Source: Prevotella sp.
Lineage (GTDB): Bacteria > Bacteroidota > Bacteroidia > Bacteroidales > Bacteroidaceae
DNA length: 64,000 bases
NCBI GenBank assembly: GCA_017960525.1
Contig: JAGCZA010000049.1
Location: 8,911 to 72,910, forward strand
Direction: 5' to 3'
The notes beneath the pieces were generated by a model, which saw only the letters and a list, made by a program, of their open reading frames with translations, was not told where the DNA came from and made no database searches. This document shows positions 7,904 through 46,019 of the stretch, piece by piece (within the stretch, counting starts at the first letter, position 1; each line of letters opens with the position of its first letter). Made by a program: the position numbers and the translations under genes.

Positions 7904-8665
7904 ATGAGGAAAGCATTACTATTGGTAGGAATGGGGGCTGTCTGTCTTGCTGGCTGCAGGCAGCACTACGAACTCGCATCAGTCAGCCGCAGCCGCTTAG
8001 TGGTGGACAGCCGCTACGATGCGCAGGCCGACGCTGGGGCTGCAACATTCCTAGCCCCTTACAAGCAGAAAGTAGACTCGGTGATGGGCCCAGTGCTTGG
8101 CGAGGCGGCTCACGATATGGCCGCTGAACGTCCGGAGAGTGACCTGTCGAACCTGTTGCCCGACATTCTTTTGTATATGTCGAAGGATTACGGCGAGCAG
8201 CCCGACTTCGGCATTTATAATATTGGTGGCATCCGTGCGGCACTTTCCAAGGGTAAGGTGACCTACGGCGACGTGCTTGACGTGGCGCCGTTTGAGAACA
8301 AGATTTGCTTTGTCACCCTCACGGGCGACAAGGTGCTGGAACTGTTCAGTCAGATAGCCAGCCGAGGTGGCGAGGGTGTCAGCCACGGCGTTGAGCTTGT
8401 AGTGAGCCGTGACCACAAGCTGGTTTCTGCCCGCCTGAACGGGCAGCCTATTGACCCGGCCAAGAGCTATCGCATCACTACCATCGACTATCTGGCACAG
8501 GGCAACGACGGGCTGAAGGCGTTCAAGAGCGGCACCAACCTGAACTCACCCCAGGAGGAGCACAACAACTCTCGCTACGTGATAGGCAACTACTTCCGCG
8601 AAATGCAGAAGAAGGGCAAGGCTGTAGCATCGAAAGTGGAGGGAAGGATAAAGATTGAACATTGA
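7904..8665 (+). CDS. 5'-nucleotidase C-terminal domain lipoprotein
   Basis: Lipobox LAGC; NIGGIRA, PFEN and TIDYLAQGNDG; start moved to MRKALL because the longer ORF runs through the tRNAs. Confidence 0.85.
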   Translation: MRKALLLVGMGAVCLAGCRQHYELASVSRSRLVVDSRYDAQADAGAATFLAPYKQKVDSVMGPVLGEAAHDMAAERPESDLSNLLPDILLYMSKDYGEQPDFGIYNIGGIRAALSKGKVTYGDVLDVAPFENKICFVTLTGDKVLELFSQIASRGGEGVSHGVELVVSRDHKLVSARLNGQPIDPAKSYRITTIDYLAQGNDGLKAFKSGTNLNSPQEEHNNSRYVIGNYFREMQKKGKAVASKVEGRIKIEH

Positions 8666-8688
8666 AAATTGACCATTGAACATTGAAG
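8654..8688 (+). repeat. Heptamer array (ATTGAAN)x5 at gene junction
   Basis: ATTGAAC ATTGAAA ATTGACC ATTGAAC ATTGAAG. Confidence 0.8.
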
Positions 8689-8691
8689 ATT

Positions 8692-9537
8692 ATGAAGACT
8701 GGATATCTGTTTGGATTATTGTTTGTTTCTTTTTCGCTTGTCACTCCTGTTGGGGCGCAGAAGACGCTGACCATCCTGCACACCAACGACACCCACTCGT
8801 GCATTCTGCCCCTGAACAAGAATCTTGCCGATACCACCTTGGCCGGACGTGGCGGCTTCCTGAGACGCATAGCCCTGCTCAAAGAGGAGCGGCTGAAAGA
8901 CCCCGACCTGCTCTATTTCGACAGCGGCGATTTCTCGCAGGGCAGCAGCTACTACACCATGTTTCAGGGCGACGTGGAGATTGGGCTTATGAACCGTATG
9001 GGTGTTGATGCATCGACGATAGGGAACCATGAGTTCGACTTCGGGCTTGAGAATATGACTCGGTTGTTCCGCAAGGCCACCTTCCCCATTGTCTGTTCCA
9101 ACTACGACTTTGCTGACACGGAGTTGAAAGAGTTGGTGAAGCCATACATTGTCATCAAGCGCTGTGGCGTGAAGATTGGCGTCTTCGCCCTTTGCCCGCC
9201 ATTGGAGGGTCTGGTGTCAGCCAAGAACTATGGCTCGCTGCGTTTTCTGGATCCAGTAGAGGTGACGCAGCAGATGGTGGAGCTGCTGAAGGTCAGGAAG
9301 AAGTGCGACCTCGTTGTTTGCATCAGCCATCTGGGATGGGGAACTACCGAGTATCCCGACAACCGCATAATAGCTGCTACTAAGGGCGTAGACCTGGTGC
9401 TTGGCGGCCATAGTCACACCTATTTCAAGCAATTGGAGTATGTGGATAACGCCGATGGAAAAGCCGTTCCCGTCGACCAGAACGGAAAGCATGGCGCCTT
9501 TATCGGCAAGTTGCAGCTGACGCTGAAGAAACGGTAA
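8692..9537 (+). CDS. 5'-nucleotidase N-terminal metallophosphoesterase domain protein
   Basis: LHTNDTHS, DSGD, GNHEFD, SHLG and GGHSH motifs. Confidence 0.88.
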   Translation: MKTGYLFGLLFVSFSLVTPVGAQKTLTILHTNDTHSCILPLNKNLADTTLAGRGGFLRRIALLKEERLKDPDLLYFDSGDFSQGSSYYTMFQGDVEIGLMNRMGVDASTIGNHEFDFGLENMTRLFRKATFPIVCSNYDFADTELKELVKPYIVIKRCGVKIGVFALCPPLEGLVSAKNYGSLRFLDPVEVTQQMVELLKVRKKCDLVVCISHLGWGTTEYPDNRIIAATKGVDLVLGGHSHTYFKQLEYVDNADGKAVPVDQNGKHGAFIGKLQLTLKKR

Positions 9538-9549
9538 GAGACACGGGAA

Positions 9550-9577
9550 TAGGGGGTTCCCCAGAGGGCTCCCCCTA
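9550..9577. terminator. Hairpin between convergent genes
   Basis: TAGGGGG-TT-CCC-CAGA-GGG-CT-CCCCCTA. Confidence 0.5.
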
Positions 9578-9580
9578 CGC

Positions 9581-12500
9581 TTAATCTTCTATCAGTTCGT
9601 AGTCATCGTGGTCGCCGCTGGCAGCCCTCGCTTCGTCGCGGTATTTCGATGGGGTCATTCCAGTAATCTGCTGGAAGTGATGGGTGAAGTTGGCGGAGTC
9701 GGGGAATCCTGTGCTGAACGAAATGTCGGCAACGTTGTTGTTTGTCTGTTCCAACATTTCTTTGGCTTTCTCTATCCTGAAGTTTGTCAAAAGGTCTTTG
9801 GGTGTCAGGCCTTTGGCCTTCATCAGTTTTTCCTCCAGTTCTGCCCTTCCCATATTGAGGTGTGCTAGCAGCTGGTCGATTGAAAGTTTTTGCTTGGCAT
9901 AGTTTTGCTCCAGCCATTCGTTTACTTGCTTCATAAACTCGACGTTATCCTGGCTGCTGTCTGCGTTGTTAATACCCTTTGCGGATTTCTTCCCCCTGTT
10001 GCGCAGATAGTACTGCCTTCCGAAGAGGATTCCCACGCCGATGATGGCGGCGAGCAGCAAGTAGATCCAGATGGCACTCTTTGAGAACAGGAAAGCCGAT
10101 GGCACCACTATTGTGATTTCCTTCTGGTCGTACTTCTCAGGAGATTCGAGCAGGAAAGCCTTCACCTTCAGTTTGTAGGTGCCGGCAGGCAGGTCGGCGT
10201 ATGTGGCTGTGCGGTCTTTTGAGGCGTTGTTCCACTCGTCATCGTAGCCTTCGAGCATATACTGGTAGTGCACGCGGTGCTGCAATTGGTAGTTGAGCGA
10301 GACGAAACGCAATGCAAACTGGTCGTCGTGCGACGGCAGTTCGATGCTCTTTGCATCGGGCACGTAGAAGGGGAATACGCTTCCCTTGCGTGGGCTCTGA
10401 AGTTCTCCGTTGAGCCAGAAATCGGTAAACCTGAGCTTGAGCACCGATCCCGACGAGTTTTCCAGCTTCTGGCGGTCGATGCGGTAGTAGCCGTCGGTGG
10501 TTCCGAAGAGTATGATGTCGTTTGGCATGGTGACTGCTGACCCCTCGGAGCAGGTGGTCTCGTCTACGCCTTCCAGACTGGAAAACATAGAGAAGATGTT
10601 CTTCGAGGTGTCGAATGAGCAGATGATGTTGTCGGTGTCGAACCACACATTGCCCCTGTTGTCGAAAGTGATGCTCCTGATTTCCTCAGACGGCAGTCCG
10701 TCTTTGGAGCCAAAGTGTTCAAAGAGCCAGCAGCCCTCGCTGTCCTTGCCAATGGTGTGGGCCAGTCCGCCACCATTGGTGCCAACCCAGATGCCTCCCT
10801 GTTTGTCGTTTCCCAGACAGACCACGTCGTTTGAGAGTAATATCTTTTCTGGTTCTTCTTCTGAGTTCTGTAGCTGTTCAATAGTCACTCTGCCACTTTT
10901 ATACGACATTATTAGTATGCCGTCGGTGGTGCCTGCCCACACTTTTCCTTCCTTGTCGATGGCCAGGTCTCTCACTTTCATGAAATTGTGGTGCGGATAG
11001 CCTCTCATCTTGTTCTTTGGACTGAGGAATGTGTGTGTGTCTTTCACCAGCATATTCACGCCTCCGCCATAGGTGGCCACCCAGATGTTGCCTTCAGCAT
11101 CTTCCACCGCGTTGTAGGCGCGGTTGTCGCTGAGCGATTCCGAGTTGTCTTCTTCGTGCTGGTAGTTTTTCATACTGTATCTGCCACCTTCATAGAGTGT
11201 CATCTTGAAGAGGCCGTAGTCTTTCGACGACAGCCAGTAGTTGCCTTTCGAGTCTTTCATAATGCCGTAGATGCGGCCCAGCGGTTTTCCCTTCTCGTCG
11301 TTCCTGATGATAGTTTTTGAGCCGTTGGCATCGAAGACGAAGAGCATACTGTTCTTGTTGGCCATGAGTAGCAGCTTGCGTTCCTGGTCGTAGTATAGTC
11401 CGCGAATCTCATTGTCAAGCGTGGTGGTGGCATCTGGAACAGGGCGTATGCGCTCGATGGTCTTGTTTATGATTTCGAGCTTCTCCATTCCCCTCCTGAT
11501 GGTCGACTCCCAGACCACACCCTCGTTTAGTTCAAGTTGGGCGTTCATGGTGTTCGACAGGTTCCAAGGGTTTTCCGGGTCGTTGTGGAAATAGTGAATC
11601 TTGTCCTCCTCACGGTTGTAGTAGCCATAGCCGCCCTTGTTCATACGTACCCACACGATACCGTTTGTCTCTGAGAAGAATGCTCCCCAGCTGTCGTAGT
11701 CGGGCACTCTCACATCCTGTGTGAAGAATTTCTCGTCATTCGTTGCGCCGACAATGAGTCTGGAAGCTCCCATCCTGCTGTCGGCAAACCATATCAGTCC
11801 GTGGCTGTCTACAAAAATGGAAATGACGGGCAGCCCGCCCTGTCGGATAATGCTTGGTTCCTGTCCGTATGAAAATGTGACAATTTTTCCTGACTGTGTG
11901 CCGGCGAAGATATTGTAGCCATTGGAGTACAGGCAGGAAATCTTCTCGTCCAAGAAGATGCCTTTCCGCTCGATGGTGAGGTTGCTGGCATCCAGGCGGT
12001 GTATGCCCTCGTTGGTGCCCAGCCAGATGTCGTTCTGGTAGCCCTCGGCCATTGAGGTGACGTTGAGTCCGGCTGTGGTGATGAGCTGTGCGCTGATGTT
12101 GTCCTGTTCAACCCTCATCTTGTAGATGCCCACGTTGTCAACAGTCACGAGCACATCGCCGTTGCTGGTCACGGTGATGGGGGTGCTGACGCGGAACTCG
12201 TCGCTGCCGTTCACGTTTTCAAACGGATTGACGAAGCAGTCGTTGCTCCTTTTCACCACGAAGATGCGCTGGTCGTACATACGCATCCAGACGTTCTGCT
12301 GGTTGTCGATGGCAATGTCCCATATACGGTTGTGCAGATTGGGGATGTGGCTTGCCGGTCCTGTCTGGTAGTTATAGAAGTTGTAGCCATCGAAGCGCGA
12401 CAGTCCGTTCCAGGTGGCAATCCACAAGTAGCCGTAGCCATCTTGTTTTATCTGCGCAATAGAGTTACTTGCCAGCCCGTCCTCTGTTGAGTAGTGCGAC

Positions 12501-12592: not shown

Positions 12593-12657
12593 TTCTTGCT
12601 GTGTTTTTTACTTTTCAGGGCATAAAGGTACGCTTTTTTTCCGATACTGCCTCAGAA

Positions 12658-13797: not shown

Positions 13798-13819
13798 TGT
13801 CTGGGCTTGTAGTTTGTTG

Positions 13820-14884: not shown

Positions 14885-14928
14885 ATTCGGTGTGTTCTGT
14901 TTAATCGGTGTGTTAAATAGATGTGGCA

Positions 14929-17444: not shown

Positions 17445-17522
17445 GGACGAACCAGACTCTGAGTTTGGACGAACCAAAGTAGGAGTTTGGACGAACCAAA
17501 CTCCTGGTTTGGACGAACCAAA
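17445..17522 (+). repeat. Four-unit 22-bp array, core TTTGGACGAACCAAA
   Basis: GGACG at 17445, 17467, 17489 and 17511. Confidence 0.92.
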
Positions 17523-17600
17523 CTTTTGGGCTTAAAAGAGGGGGTAGAAAAGCAGGGGGCGGCTTTTTGCTTTTTTTAGCGTGCTTCCGTTGCGAAAACA

Positions 17601-17658: not shown

Positions 17659-18516
17659 ATGATGAGACGACTTTTTATGGTACTTTCGCTGTCGCTGTGG
17701 CTGGCGCTCCCTTCGTTGGGGCAGGTGGTTGCCGACAGCGGGGCTGTGATTCCTGCCGATACTGAGGCGGTGGCGGCAGCCAGCATCGAGGAACTGATTG
17801 GCGACGAGGAAATGGCCGAGTTGGAGGAAATGGCTGCCAGCGAGGCTTCGCTGCACCAGCAGTTGAAGTCGAAGTTTGTGGAAGGTTCGACGGAGTTTAT
17901 GTCGCTTGTGGCGCTGGCCTTGGTGCTGGGCCTGGCTTTCTGCATTGAGCGCATTATCTATCTGACGCTGGCGGAAGTGAAGACCGGCAAACTGATGGCC
18001 GACATCGACAAGCGGCTGGAGCAGGGCGATGTGGAGGGCGCCAAGACGCTCTGCCGCGACACTCGTGGCCCTGTGGCGTCGGTGTGCTATCAGGGCCTGA
18101 TGCATGCTGACGAGGATATGTCGTCGATTGAGCGCAACATCGTGAACTACGGCAGTCTGCAGGCGGCGCGTCTGGAGCGTGGCTGCTCGTGGATTCGGCT
18201 GTTCATCGCCATTGCCCCTTCGCTTGGGTTCCTGGGAACCGTGGTGGGTATGGTGATGGCTTTCGACCACATTCAGGAGGCAGGTGACATTTCGCCCACC
18301 ATCGTGGCCGAGGGTATGAAGGTGGCGCTCATCACCACCATCTTCGGCATCATTGTGGCCCTCATCCTGCAGGTGTTCTACAATTTCATCATTGCGAAGA
18401 TTGACCACCTGACGGAGCAGATGGAAGAGGCTGCCATTACGCTGATGGATATGATTGGGAAAGGGAAGGCGCGCTTCGCTAGTGAGGGCGCTTCGCTAGT
18501 GAATAGAGAAAAGTGA
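17659..18516 (+). CDS. exbB: MotA/TolQ/ExbB proton channel protein
   Basis: IAPSLGFLGTVVGM and ALITTIFG. Confidence 0.88.
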   Translation: MMRRLFMVLSLSLWLALPSLGQVVADSGAVIPADTEAVAAASIEELIGDEEMAELEEMAASEASLHQQLKSKFVEGSTEFMSLVALALVLGLAFCIERIIYLTLAEVKTGKLMADIDKRLEQGDVEGAKTLCRDTRGPVASVCYQGLMHADEDMSSIERNIVNYGSLQAARLERGCSWIRLFIAIAPSLGFLGTVVGMVMAFDHIQEAGDISPTIVAEGMKVALITTIFGIIVALILQVFYNFIIAKIDHLTEQMEEAAITLMDMIGKGKARFASEGASLVNREK

Positions 18517-18544
18517 AGAGTGAAGAGTGAAAAGTGAGTGAAAG
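18471..18544 (+). repeat. GCGCTTCGCT head x2 plus (AGTGAAG) heptamer array
   Basis: GCGCTTCGCTAGTGA at 18471 and 18488, heptamers from 18512. Confidence 0.8.
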
Positions 18545-18646
18545 ATGATTGACGCACTACTATATTTAATATATGTGTTGCTGGCACTTTCGGTAGTGCT
18601 GGTGGCGTGGTCGCTGATTCACCAATGGATGACAAGCGACAAGTAA
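18545..18646 (+). CDS. 33-aa single-pass membrane protein (below ORF-track cutoff)
   Basis: MIDALLYLIYVLLALSVVLVAWSLIHQWMTSDK*, fills the exbB-exbD gap. Confidence 0.55.
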   Translation: MIDALLYLIYVLLALSVVLVAWSLIHQWMTSDK

Positions 18647-18678
18647 GATCGAAAATCGTAAATCGAAAATAATAATCG

Positions 18679-19278
18679 ATGTTTAAGAGCCGGAAAAAGC
18701 GGAGCCTGCCCGAACTGAACACCACATCGACAGCCGACATCTCGTTTATGCTGTTGATTTTCTTCCTTGTCACCTCGTCGATGGACACTGACAAGGGACT
18801 GGCCCGCCAATTGCCCGCTCCAGAGAATCCTGTCGAAGAGCAGGAACTCATCGTGAAGAAGCGTAATGTGCTGCTGCTCACGCTTGACGGTGACGACCGC
18901 CTGACGTGCAATGGTGACAGCATCAATACCTCTCAGTTGACAGAGCGCGTGACTGATTTCGTGGCCAATGCCGCTGGCGACCCTGCGCTGCCTGAACTGA
19001 GTGAGCGCGACGTCCATCTACTGGGCCGCTGCAAGGTGAGCGACCGCCACGTCATCTTCTTGCGTGTGAGCCGTGAGACCAGTTACAATGCCTATTTCGA
19101 GATGCAGAACGCCATTGTGGCTGGTTACAACCAGTTGCGCGACGCGCTGGCCCAAAGCCGCTTCGGTCACGCCTACGCGCAATGCAATGCCGAGGAGCGT
19201 GATGCTGTGGCAATGGTTTATCCGCAGCGCATCAGCGAGGAGATTGAGAGCGCTTCGCTAGTGAACAGTGAAGAGTGA
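18679..19278 (+). CDS. exbD: ExbD/TolR family protein
   Basis: LPELNTTSTADISFMLLIFFLVT. Confidence 0.85.
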   Translation: MFKSRKKRSLPELNTTSTADISFMLLIFFLVTSSMDTDKGLARQLPAPENPVEEQELIVKKRNVLLLTLDGDDRLTCNGDSINTSQLTERVTDFVANAAGDPALPELSERDVHLLGRCKVSDRHVIFLRVSRETSYNAYFEMQNAIVAGYNQLRDALAQSRFGHAYAQCNAEERDAVAMVYPQRISEEIESASLVNSEE

Positions 19279-19301
19279 ATAGTGAAGAGTGAAAGGTGAG
19301 G
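19250..19301 (+). repeat. GCGCTTCGCT head plus (AGTGAAN)x5-6 array
   Basis: Same 16-nt head as 18488; supplies the exbD stop codon. Confidence 0.8.
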
Positions 19302-19309
19302 ATTGAGAT

Positions 19310-19765
19310 ATGAGAAGAGGGGTATTCAAAAGACGGGAGCATCAGATGCCAGGGCTGAACACAGCGGCTCTGCCCGACCTCATTTTCACCGTACTCTTCT
19401 TCTTTATGATTGTCACTCACATGCGCGACGTGGACCCGCTGGTGCGCTACAACGTGCCACAGGGCACGGAACTTCAGAAGTTGGCGCACAAGTCGTCGGT
19501 GGTCTATATCTACGTGGGGCGCACGGCTAAGGGGAGTGACCAGTTTGCCATCCAGTTGAACAACCGTCTTGCCACCGTCGACGATATCCGTGCCTACATT
19601 GAGGAAGAGCGCAGCCGTATGGCCACCGACGACCAGGCGCGCCTGACTGTGAGCATCAAGGCCGACCGCGATGTGCCGATGAGCCTTATTGCCGACGTAA
19701 AGGAAGCCCTGCGTCAGAGTTATGCCTTGAAGATAAACTATTCTGCAACGAACAAACCGCAATAA
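19310..19765 (+). CDS. exbD: ExbD/TolR family protein
   Basis: LNTAALPDLIFTVLFFFM and IKADRDVP. Confidence 0.85.
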   Translation: MRRGVFKRREHQMPGLNTAALPDLIFTVLFFFMIVTHMRDVDPLVRYNVPQGTELQKLAHKSSVVYIYVGRTAKGSDQFAIQLNNRLATVDDIRAYIEEERSRMATDDQARLTVSIKADRDVPMSLIADVKEALRQSYALKINYSATNKPQ

Positions 19766-19770: not shown

Positions 19771-21909
19771 ATGAAACTACACCTGACGAGAAACGCTATA
19801 GCCGTCTGTGCCTTTCTGATGGCCAGTACCACCGCTGGGGCGCAGGGCGGAGTGACTAATACCTCGAAATGCGAAAACGCCCGTATGACCAGCGTGCCCC
19901 TGACTGCCGTGCAATGGACGGGTGGCTTCTGGGGCGAGCGCTTCGACGTGTTGAGCAAGACGAGCGTGCAAAGTATGTGGGAGACGTGGCAGAGTGCACA
20001 GGGCAAAGGCTTCAACAACTTCCTCGTGGCCGCTGGCGAGAAGCAGGGCGAGCACCACGGCCCTCCCTTTCACGACGGCGATATGTACAAATGGCTAGAG
20101 GCCGTCGCCTCGGTCTATGCCATCACCCGCGACCCCCAGTTGGAGCAGATTATGGACCGCTTCATTGGACTGGTGCAGAAGGCGCAACGCGCTGACGGAT
20201 ATATCCATACGCCTGTGATTATCAAGGAACGGTTAAGAGTTGAGAGTTCAGAGTTGAGAGACAATAGTTCCTCGTCAGAGAACAACGACAATAATACTAA
20301 AGTCTCTCAACCCGTCGGCACCGCCGTTGGCACCAAAAACGATGCTGCCTTTGAGAACCGCCTGAACTTCGAGACCTACAACTTGGGGCATCTGATGATG
20401 GCGGGCATTATTCACAAACGGGCAACGGGGAAGACCACGCTCTTCGATTGTGGCGTGAAGGCCGCTGACTTCCTCTACGACTTCTGCCAGCGGGCGCCGG
20501 AAGAACTGGCCGGAAACGCCATCTGCCCCTCGCACTATATGGGCGTGGCCGAACTTTACCGTGAGACGGGCAACAAGAAATACCTCGACCTCCTGCGGCA
20601 GTTTATCGACATCCGTGGGATGGTGAAAGACGGCACCGACGACAACCAAGACCGTATACCCTTCCGCCAGCAGTACCAGGCAATGGGCCACGCTGTCCGC
20701 GCCAACTATCTCTATGCAGGCGTGGCCGACCTCTACTTGGAGAGCGGCGAGGAGCAGTTGATGAAGAACCTCACCAGCATCTGGCAGGACATCACCCAGC
20801 GGAAGATGTATATCAACGGCGCTTGCGGTGCCCTCTACGACGGCACATCGCCTGATGGCACCAACTACAAGCCCGACAGCATCCAGAAAGTGCACCAGAG
20901 TTACGGGCGCCCCTACCAGTTGCCACAAAGCACGGCTCACAACGAGACCTGCGCCAACATCGGCAATATGCTGTTCAACTGGCGGATGCTCCTTGCTACA
21001 GCCGATGCAAAGTATATGGACTTGGTAGAGAACTGCCTGTACAACAGCATCTTGCCCGGCATTTCGCTCAACGGCGAGAGTTACTTCTACACCAATCCCT
21101 TGCGACTGAGCGATGAGTTGCCCTACACCCTGCGCTGGCCGAAGGAGCGCAAGAAGTACATCTCGTGCTTCTGCTGTCCGCCAAACACACTGCGCACCCT
21201 CTGCGAGGCCCAGGACTACGCCTATACGCTCACCCGTCCGAACAGTACTGGCACCATCTACGTGAACCTCTTTGGCACCAGCCAGTTAAAAGGGAAATTG
21301 GATGATGTGGGCGACATTGTGCTCACCCAGCAGACTGACTATCCCTGGAGCGGTCACGTCACCCTGACCATCGAGAAACTGAAGGCTCCACGCCACCACA
21401 AGTTTGCCATCGGCCTGCGCTGTCCTGAGTGGGCAGCCGGTGCTTCCTATACCGTCAACGGCCAACCGCAGTCCATCAATAAGGAGAAGGGCTACTTGGT
21501 GGTAAACCGCAAATGGAAGCAGGGCGACGTCATCAGTTTCGACATCCCGATGGAAACGCGCATTGTGGAGGCTAATCCGCTCGTTGAAGAGAGTAGGGGA
21601 CAAGTGGCTGTGATGCGAGGCCCCATCCTCTATTGTCTGGAAAGCAATGACCTCAACGGCACCGACATCGACAACGTCACGATTCCCGTCACAGCACAGT
21701 TCCGGCCAGTCGAGGTGAACATCGGTGGCAGCCGGATGATGGCCCTCGAAACCGAAGCATACGTGCGGGGTGAGGATGACTGGAAGGGCACGCTCTACCG
21801 CAATGTCGCCACGAAGAAGGCAAAGAAGACCGTGCGCCTCGTTCCCTATTATGCCTGGGGAAACCGAGGCAAGAGCGAGATGACCGTGTGGATGCCTGCC
21901 TCTTACTGA
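19771..21909 (+). CDS. GH127 beta-L-arabinofuranosidase-like glycoside hydrolase
   Basis: DMYKWLEA, GHAVRA, HNETCANIG and CFCCPPN; signal peptide. Confidence 0.85.
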   Translation: MKLHLTRNAIAVCAFLMASTTAGAQGGVTNTSKCENARMTSVPLTAVQWTGGFWGERFDVLSKTSVQSMWETWQSAQGKGFNNFLVAAGEKQGEHHGPPFHDGDMYKWLEAVASVYAITRDPQLEQIMDRFIGLVQKAQRADGYIHTPVIIKERLRVESSELRDNSSSSENNDNNTKVSQPVGTAVGTKNDAAFENRLNFETYNLGHLMMAGIIHKRATGKTTLFDCGVKAADFLYDFCQRAPEELAGNAICPSHYMGVAELYRETGNKKYLDLLRQFIDIRGMVKDGTDDNQDRIPFRQQYQAMGHAVRANYLYAGVADLYLESGEEQLMKNLTSIWQDITQRKMYINGACGALYDGTSPDGTNYKPDSIQKVHQSYGRPYQLPQSTAHNETCANIGNMLFNWRMLLATADAKYMDLVENCLYNSILPGISLNGESYFYTNPLRLSDELPYTLRWPKERKKYISCFCCPPNTLRTLCEAQDYAYTLTRPNSTGTIYVNLFGTSQLKGKLDDVGDIVLTQQTDYPWSGHVTLTIEKLKAPRHHKFAIGLRCPEWAAGASYTVNGQPQSINKEKGYLVVNRKWKQGDVISFDIPMETRIVEANPLVEESRGQVAVMRGPILYCLESNDLNGTDIDNVTIPVTAQFRPVEVNIGGSRMMALETEAYVRGEDDWKGTLYRNVATKKAKKTVRLVPYYAWGNRGKSEMTVWMPASY
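20237..20313. repeat. Heptamer element with inverted ends, in-frame in GH127
   Basis: GAGTTGA GAGTTCA GAGTTGA GAGAC ... ACTAAAGTCTCTCAACCC. Confidence 0.75.
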
Positions 21910-33360: not shown

Positions 33361-35848
<2,488 letters not shown>

Positions 35849-38731: not shown

Positions 38732-38785
38732 TGATTGGTGTCTGTTGCGGAAATCTGCATTTGTTCAGATTCCTAACATCCTAAT

Positions 38786-40315: not shown

Positions 40316-40333
40316 AATTCGTAAAGTGTTTTG

Positions 40334-42787
40334 TTATTCTATTGTTATCTTTGTACACTTGACATTATCTCCGTTGAGCACGAAGACACCTCCCCACCAC
40401 TGCTGGGTGTATGCTGCGTTGAGCATTTCCTGTGTGAGCGTGAGACCGAACTTGCCGCCATTGCCAGCGAGGTCGTATTCGGTGAACTTGCCTCCTTCCG
40501 TGTCGTTGCCAAAGCTGCAGATGCTGGCGTAGGTGGGTCCCCAGTGGCCTTCAACGATCTGGAGCTTCCAGTCGGAAGCCAGCGGAGTGAGGTAGAAGTA
40601 AATGGTCTGACCGGCCTTTGCCTCTACTGCGGCCAGCTCTGCGCCTGCGTCGGAGAGGACGTAGGGCTGGTTGCCCCAGTCGTCGGCAATGGCTTCGCCT
40701 TCCCACAGCGTTTCCTCGACCGACTCATAGTGGGTGGTGGTGACGCGGTCGACGACCACGTTGTCGCCATTGAGCACGAACACACCGCCCCACCACTGCT
40801 GGGTGAACGCAGCGTCGAGCATTTCCTGAGTCACTTCAATGCTGTAGTAGCCCTTGTTGGCCTCGAGGTCGTACTCAGTGAACTTGCCACCTTCTGTGTC
40901 GTTGCCAAAGCTGCAGATGCTGGCGTAGGTGGGTCCCCAGTGGCCTTCCACGATTTGGAGTTTCCAGGCAGCATCCAGCGGCGTGATGTGGAAGCTGATG
41001 ATGTCGCCAGCGACGACGCCTGCATCCTTCAGTTCCTGTCCGGCATCGGAGAGGACGTATGGCTGGTTGCCCCAGTCGTCGGCCACAGCCTGACCCGTCC
41101 ACAGCACGGTCGTCACCTCAGTATTGGGGATGAAGTCCATCGTGTAGGTAATCTCACCGTTAGAAGAGATGAGGCGAACCTTCGAACCCTTCTTGGCTTT
41201 GGCGGGAATGCCTATGATCAGCTGGCCAGCATTGGTCAGCACATACTGGCAGGCCTCGCCGTTGATTTCGACACCCGTCAGCTTGTCGCCATTGGCAACT
41301 GGCAGTGCGAATGAGTCACCAGCCTTCAGTTCGGCATCCTCGGCAGGCATTTCCTTGAAGTAGCAGAACACAGCCTCTTTAACAGTGACGGCAGGAACGT
41401 TGGCAACGGTCGTACCATTGGCCAGCGTCAGTACCGGACTGCCTGAAGTGGCGTTCATTGGAACAGTGAGCGTAATGGCAGAAGCAGAGCCTTCAACCTT
41501 GACGACATCTGACTCGCCAAACTGCACTTTCTTCACCAAGTCGAGATTGGTACCCTTGATGGTGAGTGTGCCACCAGCACTTACAGTTGTGTTGTCGTAA
41601 CCATTTACGGTAGGCTTCACCAGCGTGAAGGCCACTTCGACGGTTTCTCCGTTGGCCATCACCAGTGCCAGATTGCCCTCAACAGCCGTCTCAGGCATGG
41701 CCTTTACGACCACCTTGTCGGCACTTGCCTCAATCTCGCCACCGTCGACAGTAGCATTGCCAGTGGGGAAGTTGACAGCGGTCACCAAGTCCATGTCGGC
41801 ACCGCTGATGGTGAGTGCCTGGCCAGCCTTGACAGGCTTCGGAGCAGCCACGCCGTTGGTGGGCTTCACCGTGTTCAGCGTTCCCACGGGAACCTCAACA
41901 CCCGACTTGCAGACGAGCACGATGTCGCCACTCAGAGCCACAGCGGGCAGAGTGAGCGTCAGACTGGTGCGGTCTTCCGACACCGTGATGTCTTCGGCAC
42001 TGACGCCGCCGATGGTCACGTCGGCGACCACGTTGAAGTAGGTGCCTGTGAACGTGAGCTTCTCGCCAGCCTTGGCGGTAATCGCGCCCTGGGCATCAGC
42101 CTCGTTGCGGCCTTTCAGCTTGCTCACCTCGGGCAGGCCAATCTCGATGGCTTCCTCGGTCTGCATAATCTGATACTCCACCTTGCTCTTGTCGATGACC
42201 GTCAGGTCGGCTGTGTAGAGTTCCATCTTGCCAGTCTTGGCCTCTTCAGGTACTGCGACCTCGATGGCGTAGCGTGTGTGTGAGGCAAAGTCCTGCTCGC
42301 TGACAACCACATTGTCGGCAAATGCCAGCGAATGGATGAGGTTCAGATAGTCACCCTCAATCTTGATGACATCGCCAGGCATAGCCTTAGCTGGAACCTT
42401 CGTGATTTCGATGCCCTCAATATATTTGAGGTCGGTCTTTGTGACAATCGTCTGGTTGGTCTTCGTCACCAGTTTCACCAGTCCTTCCACGGGGCCGTCT
42501 TTGGGAACAGTCACTTGGATTTCACTGGGAACGCCGGCCTGCACCACCTTGATGTCGGTGATGGTGATGCCTTCGGGAAGGATGACCTGGCTCACTTGGT
42601 CGAGGTTGCTTCCTAAGAAGCGAAGCTGACCACCGCGCATTACAGGCGACGGGCCGTACACATTGAGCGAGACACCGCTCTGATACTGGTTGGTATCCAG
42701 GTCGTCGCTGCTGCACCCTGCCAGCGACAGCCCCAGGAGGGCTATCACTGCCAGTGCGAATATATTCTTAAAGTTTTTCATAATCAT
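40334..42787 (-). CDS. Surface glycan-binding lipoprotein: IPT/TIG repeats plus two duplicated Trp-rich modules
   Basis: Lipobox LAGC; repeated G.NLD.V..V motifs; 132-aa C-terminal duplication. Confidence 0.75.
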   Translation of the reverse strand: MIMKNFKNIFALAVIALLGLSLAGCSSDDLDTNQYQSGVSLNVYGPSPVMRGGQLRFLGSNLDQVSQVILPEGITITDIKVVQAGVPSEIQVTVPKDGPVEGLVKLVTKTNQTIVTKTDLKYIEGIEITKVPAKAMPGDVIKIEGDYLNLIHSLAFADNVVVSEQDFASHTRYAIEVAVPEEAKTGKMELYTADLTVIDKSKVEYQIMQTEEAIEIGLPEVSKLKGRNEADAQGAITAKAGEKLTFTGTYFNVVADVTIGGVSAEDITVSEDRTSLTLTLPAVALSGDIVLVCKSGVEVPVGTLNTVKPTNGVAAPKPVKAGQALTISGADMDLVTAVNFPTGNATVDGGEIEASADKVVVKAMPETAVEGNLALVMANGETVEVAFTLVKPTVNGYDNTTVSAGGTLTIKGTNLDLVKKVQFGESDVVKVEGSASAITLTVPMNATSGSPVLTLANGTTVANVPAVTVKEAVFCYFKEMPAEDAELKAGDSFALPVANGDKLTGVEINGEACQYVLTNAGQLIIGIPAKAKKGSKVRLISSNGEITYTMDFIPNTEVTTVLWTGQAVADDWGNQPYVLSDAGQELKDAGVVAGDIISFHITPLDAAWKLQIVEGHWGPTYASICSFGNDTEGGKFTEYDLEANKGYYSIEVTQEMLDAAFTQQWWGGVFVLNGDNVVVDRVTTTHYESVEETLWEGEAIADDWGNQPYVLSDAGAELAAVEAKAGQTIYFYLTPLASDWKLQIVEGHWGPTYASICSFGNDTEGGKFTEYDLAGNGGKFGLTLTQEMLNAAYTQQWWGGVFVLNGDNVKCTKITIE

Positions 42788-42802
42788 GTTAGGGGCTTAA
42801 TG

Positions 42803-44158
42803 TTACTTGTTAGGTACTGCACGCACATTGTCAATCTTGATGATGGGGGTACACTCGGTTCCCTTGATGCCACCACCGACAACAAAGATGAGGAGACTGG
42901 TGAAGTCGCTTGACGAGAGACTGCCGGTAGCAGCTCCGCCGCTCATACCATACTTGAACTCACTGATGGGCAGCGTGACGGTGATCCACTCGTCGGCTGT
43001 GTCGTAGCTGCCGGTAGCTTCCCAAGGACGATAGATGCCGCGTGGCAGCTCGTCGTTGTTGAAGTAGGTATTGTTACAACCAGCGAGCAAATTGCCATAG
43101 ATGTCCTTTACCTTCGGGTCGTTGCTACCCATAGAAATCTTGGTAACGCCACCCACGATGAACTGCATGGCACCAGACATCCAAGGATTGGCCTTGGGGA
43201 TGCACATCTCAAACTTGTACGACATGTTCATGTAGTCGCTGAAGTCAGCAAGGTCGGTCAGGCGCACGCCGTCGCCCTGATAGTCTTCGGGGTCCTGCCA
43301 GTTGCCTGGCCAGTACTCGAAGGCGAAGTTTCCGTCGTCCCAAGAGCCATCCTCGTCAAGTGTCGCATTGCCCAGGATGAGGTACTTGCCGGAGATGGGA
43401 TTCTCAGCGTCGGTGATGGTCAGGCCGTTGTGCCATCCGTGGCATCCCAGGACGGCCCCCGTCACGGCGTTGCCGTTGTCGAAGTCGAACAGCATACCGC
43501 GTGAGTCTAAGAAGCGGAACGATGACTTGCCGGAGCCATATATTGACTTCACGGTAATCTGTCCTTCAGTTGTGCACTCAGGCACAACAAATGAAACGGT
43601 ACTGCGCGAAGCATTGATACTCTTGATCTCCGCCGTCTTTCCGTCAGGGAATGTGATGGTGAGTGGCACGTTGGGGTCGTCGATGAAGTAGCTGCCATAG
43701 ATAGTGGCCACAGAGCCGGGAGTAGCATATTCGCACGACATCTGAGACACGACAGGAGCCGGAATGACGATGTGGAAGTCATACGTCAGCGTGTCGTGAC
43801 CTTCAGTAATCAGATAGATTTTGTCGGTCACCAGGTCGGGAATGTCGCTGGGAACCTGGACAATCAGCGTGTTTTCAGTAATGAAGCTTGTGTTCAGGAT
43901 GGCCTTCTTGTCGTTGAAGTACATCTGCTGGATGCTGGTCAGATTAGAACCGACAAGGCAAATAGTTGCCTGGGGATAGGCCTCCACAAGCAGCGAGTCG
44001 CTTGCGCTGGCACTGGCCGGGCGGATGTAATTGATGGTGGGAGTTCCATCTGTCAGTTCAAACTCATCGGGCTGGTCTTTGCAGGAGTTGAGCGTTGCGC
44101 ATGTAGCGCAGCCTACGAGCCAGACCGCAAGTAAGTCGTTGAAATATTTGGTTTTCAT
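42803..44158 (-). CDS. Surface glycan-binding protein (SGBP-B-like) lipoprotein
   Basis: Lipobox LNSC; IPT/TIG domains; Trp-rich C-terminal domain; directly downstream of susD. Confidence 0.75.
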   Translation of the reverse strand: MKTKYFNDLLAVWLVGCATCATLNSCKDQPDEFELTDGTPTINYIRPASASASDSLLVEAYPQATICLVGSNLTSIQQMYFNDKKAILNTSFITENTLIVQVPSDIPDLVTDKIYLITEGHDTLTYDFHIVIPAPVVSQMSCEYATPGSVATIYGSYFIDDPNVPLTITFPDGKTAEIKSINASRSTVSFVVPECTTEGQITVKSIYGSGKSSFRFLDSRGMLFDFDNGNAVTGAVLGCHGWHNGLTITDAENPISGKYLILGNATLDEDGSWDDGNFAFEYWPGNWQDPEDYQGDGVRLTDLADFSDYMNMSYKFEMCIPKANPWMSGAMQFIVGGVTKISMGSNDPKVKDIYGNLLAGCNNTYFNNDELPRGIYRPWEATGSYDTADEWITVTLPISEFKYGMSGGAATGSLSSSDFTSLLIFVVGGGIKGTECTPIIKIDNVRAVPNK

Positions 44159-44190
44159 AATTTTCAATTTTCAATTTTCGATTTTCAATC
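44159..44190 (-). repeat. Heptamer array at susD/SGBP junction
   Basis: (AATTTTC)x3 GATTTTC AATC on plus. Confidence 0.8.
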
Positions 44191-45964
44191 AAAAGGATAT
44201 TCCGCTCAGGTCATAGTCTTCCGGAGCCTCCATTAGCAGTGGGTTGTAGTCGATGTCGGCTGAAGGAAGGGGAATGGTGAAGCTGCGGTCGGTCACGTTG
44301 GGTGCGGTGGCCTGCGTGTCGTAGTTGTGCTTCGAGGGGTCTACGTTGAAGGCACCACTCTCGTAGTAGGTCTTGTAGAGGTCGTTCAGGCCGTTGTAGC
44401 CATTGCGGCGTTGTGCCTTGATTTCGTTGATGGCCCCCTGCGGGTCGTAGTAGTAGCGGCGCACGAAGTCATACCAGCGGTCGCCCTCGCAGGCCAGCTC
44501 CAGGCGGCGCTCCTTCCAGATGTCCTCCCAGGTGATGCTGGTGGGATACTGATAGCCCTTCACCGAGCGGTGGCGCACCTGATAGAATGCATCGAGCACC
44601 TTTGGGTCGCTTGACGAACTGCTGTTGCCCATAGCGGCCTCTGCATAGATGAGATAGACATCAGCCAGGCGCAGGATGTGGGTGTAGAGTGCGTATGCCA
44701 TACGTCCGGCTGGGCTGCCGTAGAAGCGTGCGTGGTCGGCATTGTTGCCGTAGAGGTGCTTCACCTCGCCGGCTCCTGTGGGGCTTTCCCACTGTCCGGG
44801 TCCGGGGTGTCCGTCGGCTTCATAGCCGCCATAGCAATATTTCACCAGTTCGAAGCCGCCACAGTCGGCATAGAAGTAGTCGTATACATCGCCGGCCATC
44901 ATCAGCGTAGCCTTGCGGCGTTCGTCAACATTTTGTCGGTTCAGGCTCAGGGCATTCTCGTTGAAGGCATCCTGCAAGTCAACAGAAGGTCCTCCCCAGC
45001 CTCCCCAGTCATCACCGTTCTCATCGAAGCCCTCGATGACGAGGTCGCTCTGGAAGGTGTTCTGGCAGGTCCAGTGTGCTCCCATAGTCCAGGCCCATGA
45101 GAAGAGAGCCTCGTCGCATACGTTGTTCTCGCCACGGAAGATGTCTGAATAGTTTTCCATGAGCACGCGGCCGCTGTTCTCGATGACATCAAGAGCCAGG
45201 TCGGCTGCCTTCTTCAGGTCATCGGCATTGCGCTGGTGGGCCGTACAGGTGATGTAGCTGTAGGTGCCGGGATTGTAGGTGGTGTTGCTCTCGCTGAAGC
45301 CGGACTTTGTCAGATAGACCTTGGCCAGCAAAGCCTTGGCGCAGTACTTGTCTATGCGGCCATTGTTCGTGGGGTCTTTTTCAGGCAGCAGCTCGATGGC
45401 TTTCTCCAAAATCTTGATGATGTAGTCATACACATTGCTGATCTTGGCCTTGTGAAGAGAGGTCGACTGCTGGCTGTTGATGGTGGCAGCCGGGTCGTGG
45501 ACGATGGGCACGGCACCAAACGAGCGCACCAGGTAGAAATAGGCCATAGCCTTCCATGCCAGGCACTCGCCCATTGTGGCGTTCTTCACAGCCTCAGAAG
45601 CGCCGGTGGCGTTCTTGATGTTGTTGTAGACTGTGGTGGCGTGGGTGTTCACGGCCCAGAGCGAGGCACTCATGTTGGCCAGGTCCTGGTCGGAGCCGTC
45701 GAGGGTGAAGGTGAGATAGGGTGAGCTGCCCATGTAGTAGTTGCCCGACATCACCTCGCCAGTCTTGAAGAAGCCGCGCTGGAAGTCGTACCAGGGCGAG
45801 TTGTACAGATAGTTCACGCCCGCACGGCATTGTGCATCTGTGCTATAATAGTTGGAAGTATCATAGCCGTCTTCCGTTGGTCTGTCGAGATAGTCATCAC
45901 ACGATGATACTGCCAGACCCATCAAAGCAATGCATGCTAAAGATTTGATATTATATAGTTTCAT
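44189..45964 (-). CDS. susD: SusD/RagB nutrient-binding lipoprotein
   Basis: Lipobox VSSC; ILRLADVYLIYAEA and ERRLELACEGDRWYD. Confidence 0.93.
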   Translation of the reverse strand: MKLYNIKSLACIALMGLAVSSCDDYLDRPTEDGYDTSNYYSTDAQCRAGVNYLYNSPWYDFQRGFFKTGEVMSGNYYMGSSPYLTFTLDGSDQDLANMSASLWAVNTHATTVYNNIKNATGASEAVKNATMGECLAWKAMAYFYLVRSFGAVPIVHDPAATINSQQSTSLHKAKISNVYDYIIKILEKAIELLPEKDPTNNGRIDKYCAKALLAKVYLTKSGFSESNTTYNPGTYSYITCTAHQRNADDLKKAADLALDVIENSGRVLMENYSDIFRGENNVCDEALFSWAWTMGAHWTCQNTFQSDLVIEGFDENGDDWGGWGGPSVDLQDAFNENALSLNRQNVDERRKATLMMAGDVYDYFYADCGGFELVKYCYGGYEADGHPGPGQWESPTGAGEVKHLYGNNADHARFYGSPAGRMAYALYTHILRLADVYLIYAEAAMGNSSSSSDPKVLDAFYQVRHRSVKGYQYPTSITWEDIWKERRLELACEGDRWYDFVRRYYYDPQGAINEIKAQRRNGYNGLNDLYKTYYESGAFNVDPSKHNYDTQATAPNVTDRSFTIPLPSADIDYNPLLMEAPEDYDLSGISF

Positions 45965-45977
45965 AATTGTATCTTAT

Positions 45978-46019
45978 AATTTTCAATTTTCAATCTTCAA
46001 TGTCCAATGGTCAATCGTC
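45978..46019 (-). repeat. Heptamer array at susC/susD junction
   Basis: AATTTTC AATTTTC AATCTTC AATGTCC AATGGTC AATCGTC. Confidence 0.8.

Follow-up and report, generated by a model that had tools for sequence, protein, structure and literature searches.

Heptamer arrays at the gene junctions of the window

The window, a stretch of 64,000 nucleotides of DNA from a rumen Prevotella, carries tandem arrays of 7-nt units between a 5'-nucleotidase-C gene and a metallophosphoesterase gene, in the exbB/exbD1/exbD2 operon, around susC, susD and the gene for a surface glycan-binding protein, and between the genes for mannose-6-phosphate isomerase and GH3, as well as within the RimO, GH127, Lon and GH36 genes (Table 1). 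The junction arrays were located by Tandem Repeats Finder (TRF) and by direct reading of the letters. The ORF flanked on both sides by arrays (18546-18647) encodes a membrane protein of 33 aa that is a conserved member of the exb operon. An earlier sequence-only reading had named five junction arrays as carriers of TGA-bearing heptamers on the sense strand of the flanking genes, and this held for all five; by coordinates, the stop codons of nucleotidase-C, exbB, exbD1, susC and susD indeed lie in or touch these arrays. The same reading had placed stops in all three frames, which was the case for the arrays at 8654, 18498, 19260 and 45978; at 44159 only two frames are closed, because one unit is ATCGAAA. 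Two arrays end right before an ATG, as had been noted (8654 and 44159). The array that had been singled out as an exception (at 61740) does have the opposite orientation, and it is one of only nine antisense arrays found at tight junctions in the whole genome.

Table 1. Heptamer arrays of the window, with the stop and start codons adjoining them
Feature	Position	Strand	Location	Upstream stop	Next ATG	Frames with stops
Inverted pair of heptamer arms, CCATTGA-type then TCAATGG-type, in frame	6287-6370	+	RimO gene			
ATTGAAN array, 5.4 units	8654-8691	+	Between 5'-nucleotidase-C and metallophosphoesterase genes	TGA 8663-8665, inside array	8692 (metallophosphoesterase side), 0 nt gap	3 of 3
Doubled head GCGCTTCGCT (18471-18480, 18488-18497), then AGTGAAN array, 5.7 units (18498-18537), tail reaching 18545 (TRF and direct reading)	18471-18545	+	exbB to small ORF	exbB TGA 18514-18516, within array	18546, directly after tail	3 of 3
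ATCGAAA/ATCGTAA array	18648-18678	+	Small ORF to exbD1	Small-ORF TAA 18645-18647	18679 (exbD1)	2
Head GCGCTTCGCT (19250-19259), then AGTGAAN array, 4.9 units (19260-19293), degenerate units to 19308	19250-19309	+	exbD1 to exbD2	exbD1 TGA 19276-19278, within array	19310 (exbD2), 1 nt after last degenerate unit	3 of 3
GTTGAGA arm, sense; lone in-frame TGA replaced by TCA	20232-20260	+	GH127 gene			
GTTGAGR array and hairpin tail (GAGAGACTTTAGTC...GACTGACGTC), read antisense	33990-34045	+	Lon gene			
ATTGAAA/ATCGAAA array; ATTGAAN stretch 44159-44189, read on minus strand	44159-44191	-	Between susD and surface glycan-binding protein gene	susD TGA 44191-44189, first unit of array	44158 (surface glycan-binding protein gene), 0 nt gap	2 of 3
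ATTGANN array; clear units 45978-46008 (ATTGAAN on minus strand), degenerate to 46017	45965-46020	-	Between susC and susD	susC TGA 46020-46018, immediately before degenerate units	45964 (susD), 13 nt past end of array	3 of 3
Short ATTGAAG/ATTGAAA array, sense	49348-49367	-	~40 nt upstream of susC ATG		49305 (susC)	
CTCAACT array, antisense	58571-58589	-	Within first 30 codons of GH36 ORF		58507 (GH36), 4 nt after upstream stop	
CTCAACN array, antisense, stop-free on gene strand	61733-61775	-	Mannose-6-phosphate isomerase gene / GH3 gene	Isomerase TAA 61736-61738	61786 (GH3)	

Abundance and orientation of the arrays across the genome

Period-7 arrays are far above chance expectation in this genome: TRF returned 526 period-7 rows in 3.97 Mb (about 500 arrays), 297 of them with a score of at least 40, against 72 rows, none of them at that score, in a genome simulated with a fifth-order Markov model. 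The units fall into 160 classes, mostly of the form NTGANNN, with the top ten accounting for about 45% of the arrays, and the same units turn up at unrelated sites. Median array length is 30 nt and the copies are imperfect. Arrays occupy about 10% of all co-directional junctions, those of housekeeping and other genes alike, and are not concentrated at surface-antigen genes.

The orientation seen in the window is a genome-wide bias, and it depends on spacer length: tight co-directional (operon) junctions hold 70 sense and 9 antisense arrays and mid-length spacers 21 and 8, and in long spacers (31 and 43) there is no orientation bias. Tests that do not rely on a gene caller gave the same picture, with a sense to antisense ratio of 87:29 (p 6e-8) for arrays followed within 15 nt by an ATG opening at least 100 codons, and of 68:7 (p about 1e-13) when a long ORF also ends in or at the array. 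Of the 123 sense junction arrays, 68 contain or adjoin the stop of the upstream gene, and about 70 have the next ATG between −2 and +13 nt from their end. At about ten loci, ATTGAAN arrays finish in a common register ('...ATT ATG') that places A at −3 and T at −1, which is the start context preferred in this genome. The exb operons of about 100 related loci showed 73 sense vs 16 antisense arrays; in loci of the relatives outside the exb operon, a small sample, the bias at tight junctions was weak (9:7 with the gene caller, 5:3 caller-free).

Arrays inside open reading frames

About one third of the arrays in the whole genome (166 of 513) lie inside ORFs, where only stop-free versions would survive: arms in antisense orientation, or arms in sense orientation whose in-frame TGA has changed. 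In the GH127 gene, the sense arm is followed by a loop plus a short inverted arm (ACTAAAGTCTCTCAACC), and this region forms a variable loop that exceeds the one in PDB 5MQO by 11 residues. The Lon array encodes a 16-residue insertion that is missing from all 26 aligned orthologues.

Turnover of the arrays among relatives and strains

Arrays are present at only 29 of 96, 35 of 103 and 21 of 101 orthologous exb junctions (21-34%), with units that differ between species; array-less species have an ATGA stop/start overlap at exb junctions, including exbD1/exbD2. Turnover is also evident among close strains. In 52 locus pairs with 90-99.9% identity, arrays make up 3.1% of the columns but hold 87 of the 194 indels (45%); 27 of these 87 are multiples of 7, and gains or losses of 7, 14, 21, 28 and 35 nt were seen. 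Arrays have been gained or lost between strains 92-99% identical, and metagenome strains form at one junction a graded series (empty, 27 nt, 56 nt). Some arrays differ between close strains by the presence or absence of an entire block, 32-65 nt long and not a multiple of 7, and one site directly 5' of an ATG occurs in three states, namely empty, with a 32-nt AGTGAAA array, or with a 65-nt AATTAGA-hairpin element.

At least two arrays of the window can be traced to a proto-repeat in a native gene end or spacer of relatives. In one relative, where the spacer at the nucleotidase junction measures only 7 nt, the native gene end reads ATTAAACAATGAAAA, and the first two units of the 8654 array (ATTGAACATTGAAAA) are homologous to it; the susC/susD junction of a relative consists of an 18-nt spacer with a single ATTGAAA unit. 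The junction between susD and the surface glycan-binding protein gene is in a relative a 20-nt spacer without array.

Leader composition and predicted folding

The leaders of 1930 array-less genes contain 40-55% A and 10-16% G, and show no Shine-Dalgarno peak. The sense strand of the arrays has 42% A, 6.6% C and 26% G, the latter about double the value of normal leaders. Predicted folding energy from −40 to +20 averaged −3.7 kcal/mol after sense arrays vs −5.6 at array-less tight junctions (p 3e-4). Leaders with antisense arrays are predicted to be equally low in structure; therefore, low structure cannot explain the orientation bias.

Origin and maintenance of the junction arrays

Altogether, the junction arrays are probably heptanucleotide microsatellites grown from A-rich, stop-bearing gene ends and kept in sense orientation by selection near start codons. 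The ATTGAAN and AGTGAAN arrays would arise, at least partly, in place: a gene end and its A-rich leader would often already resemble one or two xxTGAAx units, and replication slippage (the presumed engine of growth) or local duplication would expand this seed to 3-8 units, in a number that keeps changing. Since the seed carries a stop codon, the array would be born sense-oriented and the upstream protein would end within the first units; since 7 is not a multiple of 3, stops would follow in two or three frames. We infer that the initiation context then acts as a selective filter: with a start codon within about 25 nt, sense arrays would survive, keeping the leader A-rich, C-poor and unstructured, which is the context in which Bacteroidota select start codons without a Shine-Dalgarno sequence, and antisense arrays, being T/C-rich, would be rare there. 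Some observations fit less well with this origin. Pure local seeding does not predict a limited unit repertoire recurring at unrelated sites; the shared head GCGCTTCGCT or hairpin tail or core, together with block gains other than multiples of 7, looks like insertion rather than slippage; and the three states at a single position before an ATG, as well as the weak bias in the small sample from outside the exb operon, also count against it.

A selected intercistronic linker, in which an any-frame stop would be joined to an unstructured, A-rich landing or re-initiation pad without Shine-Dalgarno pairing, appears unlikely. The strong sense bias of precisely those arrays that closely precede a start, the '...ATT ATG' register with its preferred start context and the low predicted structure are all consistent with it, and the exb arrays of many species, with different units in the same place and orientation, suggest that position rather than sequence could be selected. 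However, about two thirds or more of the orthologous junctions do without an array, using ATGA overlaps or short spacers, the arrays are polymorphic between strains of 92-99% identity, the same units occur in ORFs and, unbiased, in long spacers, and the G content of the arrays is about double that of normal leaders. Of the linker proposed in the sequence-only reading, the sense bias, the stop/start geometry and the lower predicted structure were borne out genome-wide, whereas the evidence, with its in-ORF arrays, unbiased long spacers, patchy occurrence at exb junctions, strain turnover and native proto-repeats, falls short of a dedicated portable linker.

Rather doubtful is the idea of tiny MITE- or REP-like elements, one-armed copies made of a hairpin plus a heptamer tail, which a putative enzyme would insert at gene boundaries and within ORFs and whose orientation would be selected afterwards. 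Heads, tails and cores common to families (GCGCTTCGCT with AGTGAA; GTTGAGAG with ACTTTAGT..ACTAACGTCTC; AATGAGAAAT with ATGATTAC..GTAATCAT) point in this direction, and so do the clean Lon insertion, the presence or absence of whole blocks in close strains, nested head-plus-units insertions and the occurrence of two different elements at one site. An inverted partner lies within 100 nt of 24-26% of internal and antisense arrays, but of only 10% of sense junction arrays, and only 31 of 384 arrays have a GC mini-hairpin head in front of them (background 5.8%). Moreover, no target-site duplications or fixed ends were seen, the genome matches a Y1 (HUH-type) transposase only once, in an uncalled remnant that no array adjoins, and the 8654 and 45978 arrays trace to native proto-units of relatives.

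It is improbable that the arrays serve as an expression dial, in which gain or loss of units would alter spacing or leader length and so tune or switch the downstream gene, in the manner of the 7-bp repeats before the hmw adhesin genes of Haemophilus influenzae. Unit changes do occur between close strains, arrays stand in leaders (including those of susC, susD and the surface glycan-binding protein gene), and heptamer repeats in a 5' UTR have a published precedent (PMC12721329, PMC8262952). Nevertheless, short imperfect arrays imply lower slippage rates, the arrays are spread over co-directional junctions rather than gathered at surface-antigen genes, and frequent slippage would kill in essential genes such as those of Lon and RimO. 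It is very improbable that the arrays are bound by a regulator or RNA-binding protein such as ribosomal protein S1 or cold-shock proteins: this role has been proposed for the analogous TAACTGA repeats (PMC4679880) and would suit repeated, single-stranded A/G-rich motifs directly 5' of start codons, but a partner that recognises one particular sequence fits poorly with dozens of units that change by species at a given junction, and the same units lie within ORFs on either strand. The other suggestion of the sequence-only reading, that the arrays are scars of excised small gene cassettes, for which the 33-aa ORF between two arrays could speak, is close to refuted, as this conserved ORF is found also in relatives without its flanking arrays, and no extra gene occupies an array site in about 100 exb loci or at the relatives' nucleotidase and PUL junctions, the empty sites being plain stop-to-ATG spacers or ATGA overlaps.

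Relation to known heptamer repeats

The Prevotella arrays belong to a class of repeats known from other bacteria, of which they represent a local version. The short tandemly repeated repetitive (STRR) heptamer families of heterocystous cyanobacteria, reportedly described by Mazel and co-workers in 1990, are likewise genome-wide and intergenic with several unit types per genome, although with other units and in another phylum; they are not known to have a stop-and-start geometry. For the arrays within ORFs, a likeness exists to the Rickettsia palindromic elements, which Ogata and co-workers in 2000 are said to have described as selfish palindromic DNA in frame in protein genes. Borg-element tandem repeats create disordered protein regions and have in-gene units divisible by 3, unlike the 7-nt unit of Prevotella (PMC9879509). 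All three are in-frame repeat DNA placed in loops or linkers that does not destroy conserved proteins; there is no sequence relation, and the Prevotella arms are heptamer tandems.

Heptanucleotide units are also the dominant class among the long simple-sequence repeats of prokaryotes (Mrazek et al. 2007, via PMC4679880; Rehm et al. 2015, PMC4692102), which have a patchy phylogeny, a mostly non-coding location and presumed slippage. No stop/start link or orientation rule is reported in these surveys, and Prevotella is not among the genomes highlighted, as far as the literature searched shows. In Haemophilus influenzae, 7-bp repeats upstream of the adhesin genes hmw1A and hmw2A are leader tandems whose copy number shifts by slippage; they are long and perfect, stand at a few contingency genes and have been proven to affect expression (PMC12721329, PMC8262952). 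The Prevotella arrays, in contrast, are short, imperfect and spread over hundreds of junctions.

TAACTGA direct repeats, reported from marine Beggiatoaceae, some cyanobacteria and five Bacteroidetes, are the closest published parallel (MacGregor 2015, PMC4679880). These are tandem 7-nt units in 2-6 copies, mostly intergenic, 'forward' toward the start codon, and the largest class reaches to 1 nt before it; forward repeats close every frame with a stop and overlap that of the preceding ORF, ORFs tolerate repeats in reverse orientation, and neither a Shine-Dalgarno sequence nor predicted RNA structure accompanies them (PMC4679880), features that the Prevotella arrays share. The Prevotella genome has no tandem TAACTGA copies, and differs in its many NTGANNN-type classes, in having about three times the number of arrays within a smaller genome, in the third that lie in ORFs, some of them sense arms whose in-frame stop has been edited, and in the hairpin heads or cores of some families.

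Heptanucleotide repeats of this kind abound in rumen Prevotella and have a scattered occurrence in the order as a whole. With respect to the work on TAACTGA repeats, what the Prevotella arrays add is the dependence of the orientation bias on the distance to the start codon.

Heptamer arrays at the gene junctions of the window

All the arrays named in the sequence-only reading of the window were located by Tandem Repeats Finder (TRF) and direct reading, and the gene names were confirmed by Pfam (table). Arrays of tandem 7-nt units are called sense when their TGA-bearing strand is that of the flanking genes, and antisense when they are stop-free on the gene strand. As had been claimed, stop codons lie in or at the arrays: those of the nucleotidase, exbB and exbD1 genes are internal, that of susD forms the first unit, and that of susC stands directly before degenerate units; likewise, 0 nt separate array and ATG at 8692 and at 44158. 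Stops in every frame, attributed at first to these arrays generally, were found in four of the five, and the array at 44159 has them in two frames only because one unit reads ATCGAAA. None of the five has a heptamer partner in inverted orientation. The array at 61733-61775, set apart from the start as an exception, was seen in the opposite, stop-free orientation. In an Rfam search of the whole window at gathering threshold the arrays were unmatched, two tRNAs being the sole matches.

Heptamer arrays and flanking genes (window positions)
Feature	Position	Strand	Source
ATTGAAN array, 5.4 copies	8654-8691	+	TRF and direct reading
AGTGAAN array, 5.7 copies	18498-18537	+	TRF and direct reading
AGTGAAN array, 4.9 copies, degenerate units to 19308	19260-19293	+	TRF and direct reading
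ATTGAAN array	44159-44189	minus	TRF and direct reading
ATTGAAN array	45978-46008	minus	TRF and direct reading
5'-nucleotidase C-terminal domain gene	end 8665	+	Pfam
Metallophosphoesterase gene, next after nucleotidase	ATG 8692	+	Pfam
exbB	17659-18516	+	Pfam
33-aa membrane ORF	18546-18647	+	
exbD (exbD1)	18679-19278	+	Pfam
Second exbD (exbD2)	19310-19765	+	Pfam
GH127	19771-21909	+	Pfam
susC	46018-49305	minus	Pfam
susD	44189-45964	minus	Pfam
Surface glycan-binding protein gene	42803-44158	minus	Pfam

The two tRNA genes (7608-7681 and 7728-7809) fall within the long ORF 7640-8665, towards its 5' end, so that the true start of the 5'-nucleotidase-C gene must lie downstream of 7809. Intergenic four-unit arrays with a 22-bp period were observed at 5824-5903, 17445-17524 and 49547-49629; their units join a constant GGACGAACCAA(A) core to about 10 variable bases, and TRF returned 217 period-22 rows genome-wide vs 0 in a simulated genome. 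Just past a heptamer array upstream of susC, the segment 49368-49400 holds a C8 tract and two G6 tracts (CCCCCCCCTAAACAGGGGGGCAAGGGGGG), which could pair as a hairpin; runs of that length are slippage-prone.

Abundance and unit repertoire in the genome

In the source genome, a 3.97-Mb draft with 53% G+C, TRF detected period 7 far more often than any other short period, with 526 rows that merge to 513 arrays of median length 30 nt. At scores of at least 40 there are 297 period-7 arrays vs 0 in a fifth-order Markov simulation; at scores of at least 30 the simulation gave 72 rows vs 526, part of the rows scoring 30-39 (up to 72 of the 526) being chance matches. With head-to-tail 7-nt copies beyond the expectation from base composition, the arrays belong to the heptanucleotide simple-sequence repeats (LSSR class). 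About 160 unit classes were distinguished, including ATTGAAN, AGTGAAN, AATGAGA, GTTGAGA and ATTGACC, and the majority read NTGANNN on one strand (TTGA 539 occurrences, GTGA 417, ATGA 271 and CTGA 46). The stop-bearing strand is composed of 42% A, 26.5% G, 24.6% T and 6.6% C. An array is present at about 10% of co-directional junctions, rising to 23% where the spacing is 31-80 nt.

Across the order, the distribution of the arrays is wide but patchy: three tandem AGTGAAN units were found in 44 of 301 sampled genomes and in 36 of 209 genera, a search for which the reversed pattern is no valid control, since reversing the unit yields a rotation of related arrays.

Arrays mostly face closely following start codons

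Genes were called with a home-made, simple codon-usage caller, and each array was oriented by its stop-bearing strand. Arrays between co-directional genes were sense in 123 cases and antisense in 61, and a further 166 lie inside ORFs, 86 of them antisense. The sense bias proposed from the window was confirmed genome-wide at tight junctions, and depends on the length of non-array spacer left between stop and ATG: sense and antisense arrays stand at 70:9 where this spacer is up to 25 nt, at 21:8 for 26-80 nt and at 31:43 beyond 80 nt. A caller-free test, requiring within 15 nt past the array the ATG of a reading frame of 100 codons or more, gave 87 sense vs 29 antisense arrays (p 6e-8), and 68:7 (p 1e-13) when a long ORF had in addition to end in or just before the array.

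Of the 123 sense junction arrays, 68 contain or adjoin the upstream stop, and in about 70 the next ATG falls at -2 to +13 nt of the array end; stops occupy three frames in 82 and two frames in 41. That this geometry reflects a truly selected linker role, in the spirit of the portable intercistronic linker first suggested, we regard as unlikely. The relatives of this genome are metagenome-assembled genomes of rumen Prevotella and Prevotellaceae; in a small sample of their non-exb loci the bias was weak (9:7 with our caller, 5:3 caller-free).

Two candidate causes were rejected. Replication strand does not appear to set the orientation, local GC skew being unlinked to it for sense junction arrays (57:53), a weak test since skew in the draft genome follows gene strand and not replication direction. 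Seeding from the start of the downstream gene, suggested by the resemblance of TTGAAAA-like units to ATGAAAA, was likewise set aside, as similarity between a unit and the start 7-mer of its own downstream gene was not in excess by permutation (2.21 vs 2.24 of 5 positions, p 0.65; relatives, p 0.44). The overall non-uniformity of start-codon register relative to unit phase was not significant (p 0.051).

Leaders downstream of the arrays

Translation in Bacteroidota starts without Shine-Dalgarno pairing, and to our knowledge the initiation of internal operon genes in this phylum is poorly understood. The leaders of 1930 array-less ATG-start genes contain 40-55% A and 10-16% G from -3 to -20 and have no Shine-Dalgarno peak; the preferred start context of these genes is A at -3, T at -1 and A at +4. 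Sense arrays share the A-rich, C-poor pattern of normal leaders, but with about twice the G, whereas antisense arrays are T/C-rich. A-richness might explain the orientation bias.

The early suggestion that leaders after arrays are unstructured was borne out by predicted folding energies from -40 to +20, with a mean of -3.7 kcal/mol after sense arrays, compared with -5.6 where a tight junction lacks an array (p 3e-4) and -4.9 at other starts; the six junction leaders of the window all fold weakly (0 to -5.7 kcal/mol). Leaders after antisense arrays are as unstructured as those after sense arrays (mean -4.2, n=14), so that lack of structure cannot account for the orientation and was excluded as its reason. 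For a possible role of the arrays as translation-initiation enhancer or re-initiation spacer, the A-rich, C-poor composition, the low predicted structure and the sense bias near starts are indirect evidence.

Orthologous junctions in relatives

About 100 operons of the type exbB / small ORF / exbD1 / exbD2, from the genomes of relatives and rumen metagenomes, were compared. Arrays are present in 29 of 96 exbB-to-exbD1 regions, at 35 of 103 exbD1/exbD2 junctions and at 21 of 101 sites after exbD2, with 73 in sense and 16 in antisense orientation, although some of the loci are related among themselves and they are not all independent. At a single exb junction the units vary across loci (AGTGAAG, GAGAAGT, TAATTGA, GAAATGA, CTCAACN and others), and in array-less species the exbD1 tail and the exbD2 start overlap as ATGA. 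At one exbD1/exbD2 junction (locus L038), about eight copies of a 10-nt unit of the GACTAGTNCN/GACTAGTATG type stand in place of heptamers, so other periods can fill the same niche. An exact-protein look-up of ExbD2 returned no same-strain or same-species copy on record.

In the window, two arrays flank the 33-aa ORF, which is a conserved member of the exb operon and not a cassette. The ORF between exbB and exbD1 (18546-18647 in the window; loci L036-L047) is conserved but highly variable in length, with 33 aa in the window and two relatives and about 100-130 aa in the others read; a similar hydrophobic segment opens it in every case.

At the nucleotidase/phosphoesterase junction, the five ATTGAAN units found here are replaced by eight AGTGAAT units in one congener and by GATAATN units with hairpins in another, and three congeners have plain short spacers. 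The nucleotidase gene of an array-less congener ends as ATT AAA CAA TGA AAA CGCC ATG, and the aligned place in the window genome reads ATT GAA CAT TGA AAA TTGACC...; from these matching gene ends, the first two 'units' of the 8654 array are native gene end, and the remainder is extra. The orthologous susC/susD spacer of a congener measures 18 nt with one ATTGAAA, and its spacer from susD to the next gene is 20 nt and array-less. The proposal that the arrays are scars of an excised small gene cassette is close to refuted: a comparison of about 100 exb loci, ten nucleotidase junctions and one PUL orthologue turned up no additional gene at the orthologous junctions.

Turnover between close strains

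In 52 aligned locus pairs with 90-99.9% identity, arrays make up 3.1% of alignment columns yet contain 87 of the 194 indels. Of these, 27 are multiples of 7 (e.g. AGTGAAT and AGTGAATAGTGAAC), and the whole-unit lengths observed among close strains were 7, 14, 21, 28, 35, 42, 49 and 56 nt, the length polymorphism by gain and loss of whole units that marks the LSSR class. Other array indels, 32-65 nt long, take in a head or a hairpin core as one block. One junction offers a graded series, from empty through 27 nt (head and about 1.5 units) to 56 nt (head and about 6 units), and at one position immediately before an ATG three close strains show three states: empty, a 32-nt AGTGAAA array and a 65-nt AATTAGA-hairpin element. 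At a homologous site after exbD2 (loci L092, L093 and L094), four AATGAGA units in one strain correspond to four AATTAGA/G units in another; such a uniform change of all units suggests homogenisation or replacement and not independent point mutations.

Arrays inside ORFs and hairpin-bearing relatives

Antisense arms inside ORFs are stop-free, and in sense arms inside ORFs exactly the unit with the in-frame TGA is changed to TCA or TTA. The families differ in location: 33 of 50 GTTGAGR arrays are internal and 2 are sense junction arrays (counted from the listing), with a hairpin tail GAGAGACTTTAGT...ACTAACGTCTC, whereas AGTGAAN is junction-dominated (17 of 49 sense junction, 7 internal). In Lon, array and hairpin form a clean 16-residue insertion absent from 26 orthologues; the RimO gene has an inverted pair of arms inside; and the GH127 element occupies a loop that exceeds its counterpart in PDB 5MQO by 11 residues, that structure being taken as reference since relatives offer only 40% paralogues and no clean-insertion comparison. 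Five large proteins (contig positions C10:6270, C10:18311, C14:24612, C24:33532 and C13:21515) contain the same sense ATTGACC arm 80-90 nt before the stop, encoding TIDHS(S/P)L(T/S)IDN-like peptides between conserved flanking codons (…DEATGIS … VYNLNGQRV). These C-termini resemble a type IX secretion C-terminal sorting domain with a built-in heptamer array.

An inverted partner within 100 nt accompanies 24-26% of internal and antisense arrays vs 10% of sense junction arrays, and in some families heads, tails or cores are shared. No target-site duplications were seen. A mobile-element origin of the arrays seems to us quite unlikely. A hairpin head common to all arrays was considered and set aside, as GC mini-hairpin heads such as GCGCTTCGCT precede 31 of 384 arrays vs a background of 5.8%, a trait of a sub-family only. 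As to a Y1/RAYT-type transposase partner, the sole Y1_Tnp match in the genome (IS200/IS605-type, contig C28:1268-1489) has no adjoining arrays, and is probably a remnant, given that our caller finds no gene there.

Origin and significance of the arrays

Repeats of the unit TAACTGA are directed forward toward start codons, the largest class ending 1 nt upstream; they place stops in three frames, overlap upstream stops, have reverse copies inside ORFs, lack Shine-Dalgarno sequences and predicted structure, and are present in five Bacteroidetes (PMC4679880). Among the long simple-sequence repeats of prokaryotes, heptanucleotides had earlier been found to be the most abundant class, as the same paper summarises. 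Like the TAACTGA repeats (MacGregor 2015), the arrays of the window genome face a start a few nucleotides downstream and have multi-frame stops, overlap with upstream ORF ends and reverse copies in ORFs. They differ in using other units, tandem TAACTGA being absent from the window genome. With shared geometry and other units, we file them under that known kind; our literature search found no description of such arrays in Prevotella.

We favour, with some reserve, an origin in which arrays grow from gene ends, slippage alters their length and a selective filter keeps the sense orientation near starts. A-rich, stop-bearing gene ends would be the source of growth, slippage would cause the changes in length, and sense copies would be retained where a start codon closely follows. 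Quite unlikely, in our judgement, is that one undescribed, lineage-specific process gave rise to the arrays, to their hairpin-headed or palindromic relatives, and to the elements inserted in frame in Lon, RimO, GH127 and the C-terminal domains of several large proteins. Such a process would create or move tiny elements, placing them at gene boundaries and within ORFs; sense junction copies would then have been co-opted as spacers that stop any frame and restart, replacing ATGA translational coupling without Shine-Dalgarno pairing. This reading is kept in play by the three states at one position before an ATG and by the uniform AATGAGA/AATTAGA difference between strains.

About 70 natural junctions of this genome have an A-rich heptamer array in place of the usual short spacer or ATGA overlap, and the array is missing at the matching junction in close relatives, which provides a ready comparative and experimental set to establish whether downstream translation gains from such arrays, suffers from them or is unaffected. 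For annotation, arrays in stop-free orientation wrongly lengthen the 5' ends of ORFs, sense arrays rewrite protein C-termini, and conserved enzymes gain loops from arrays read in frame. If the arrays prove to be no more than slippage products sieved by selection, they would neatly illustrate how a microsatellite landscape is moulded by selection on reading frames and leaders, with no new mechanism.
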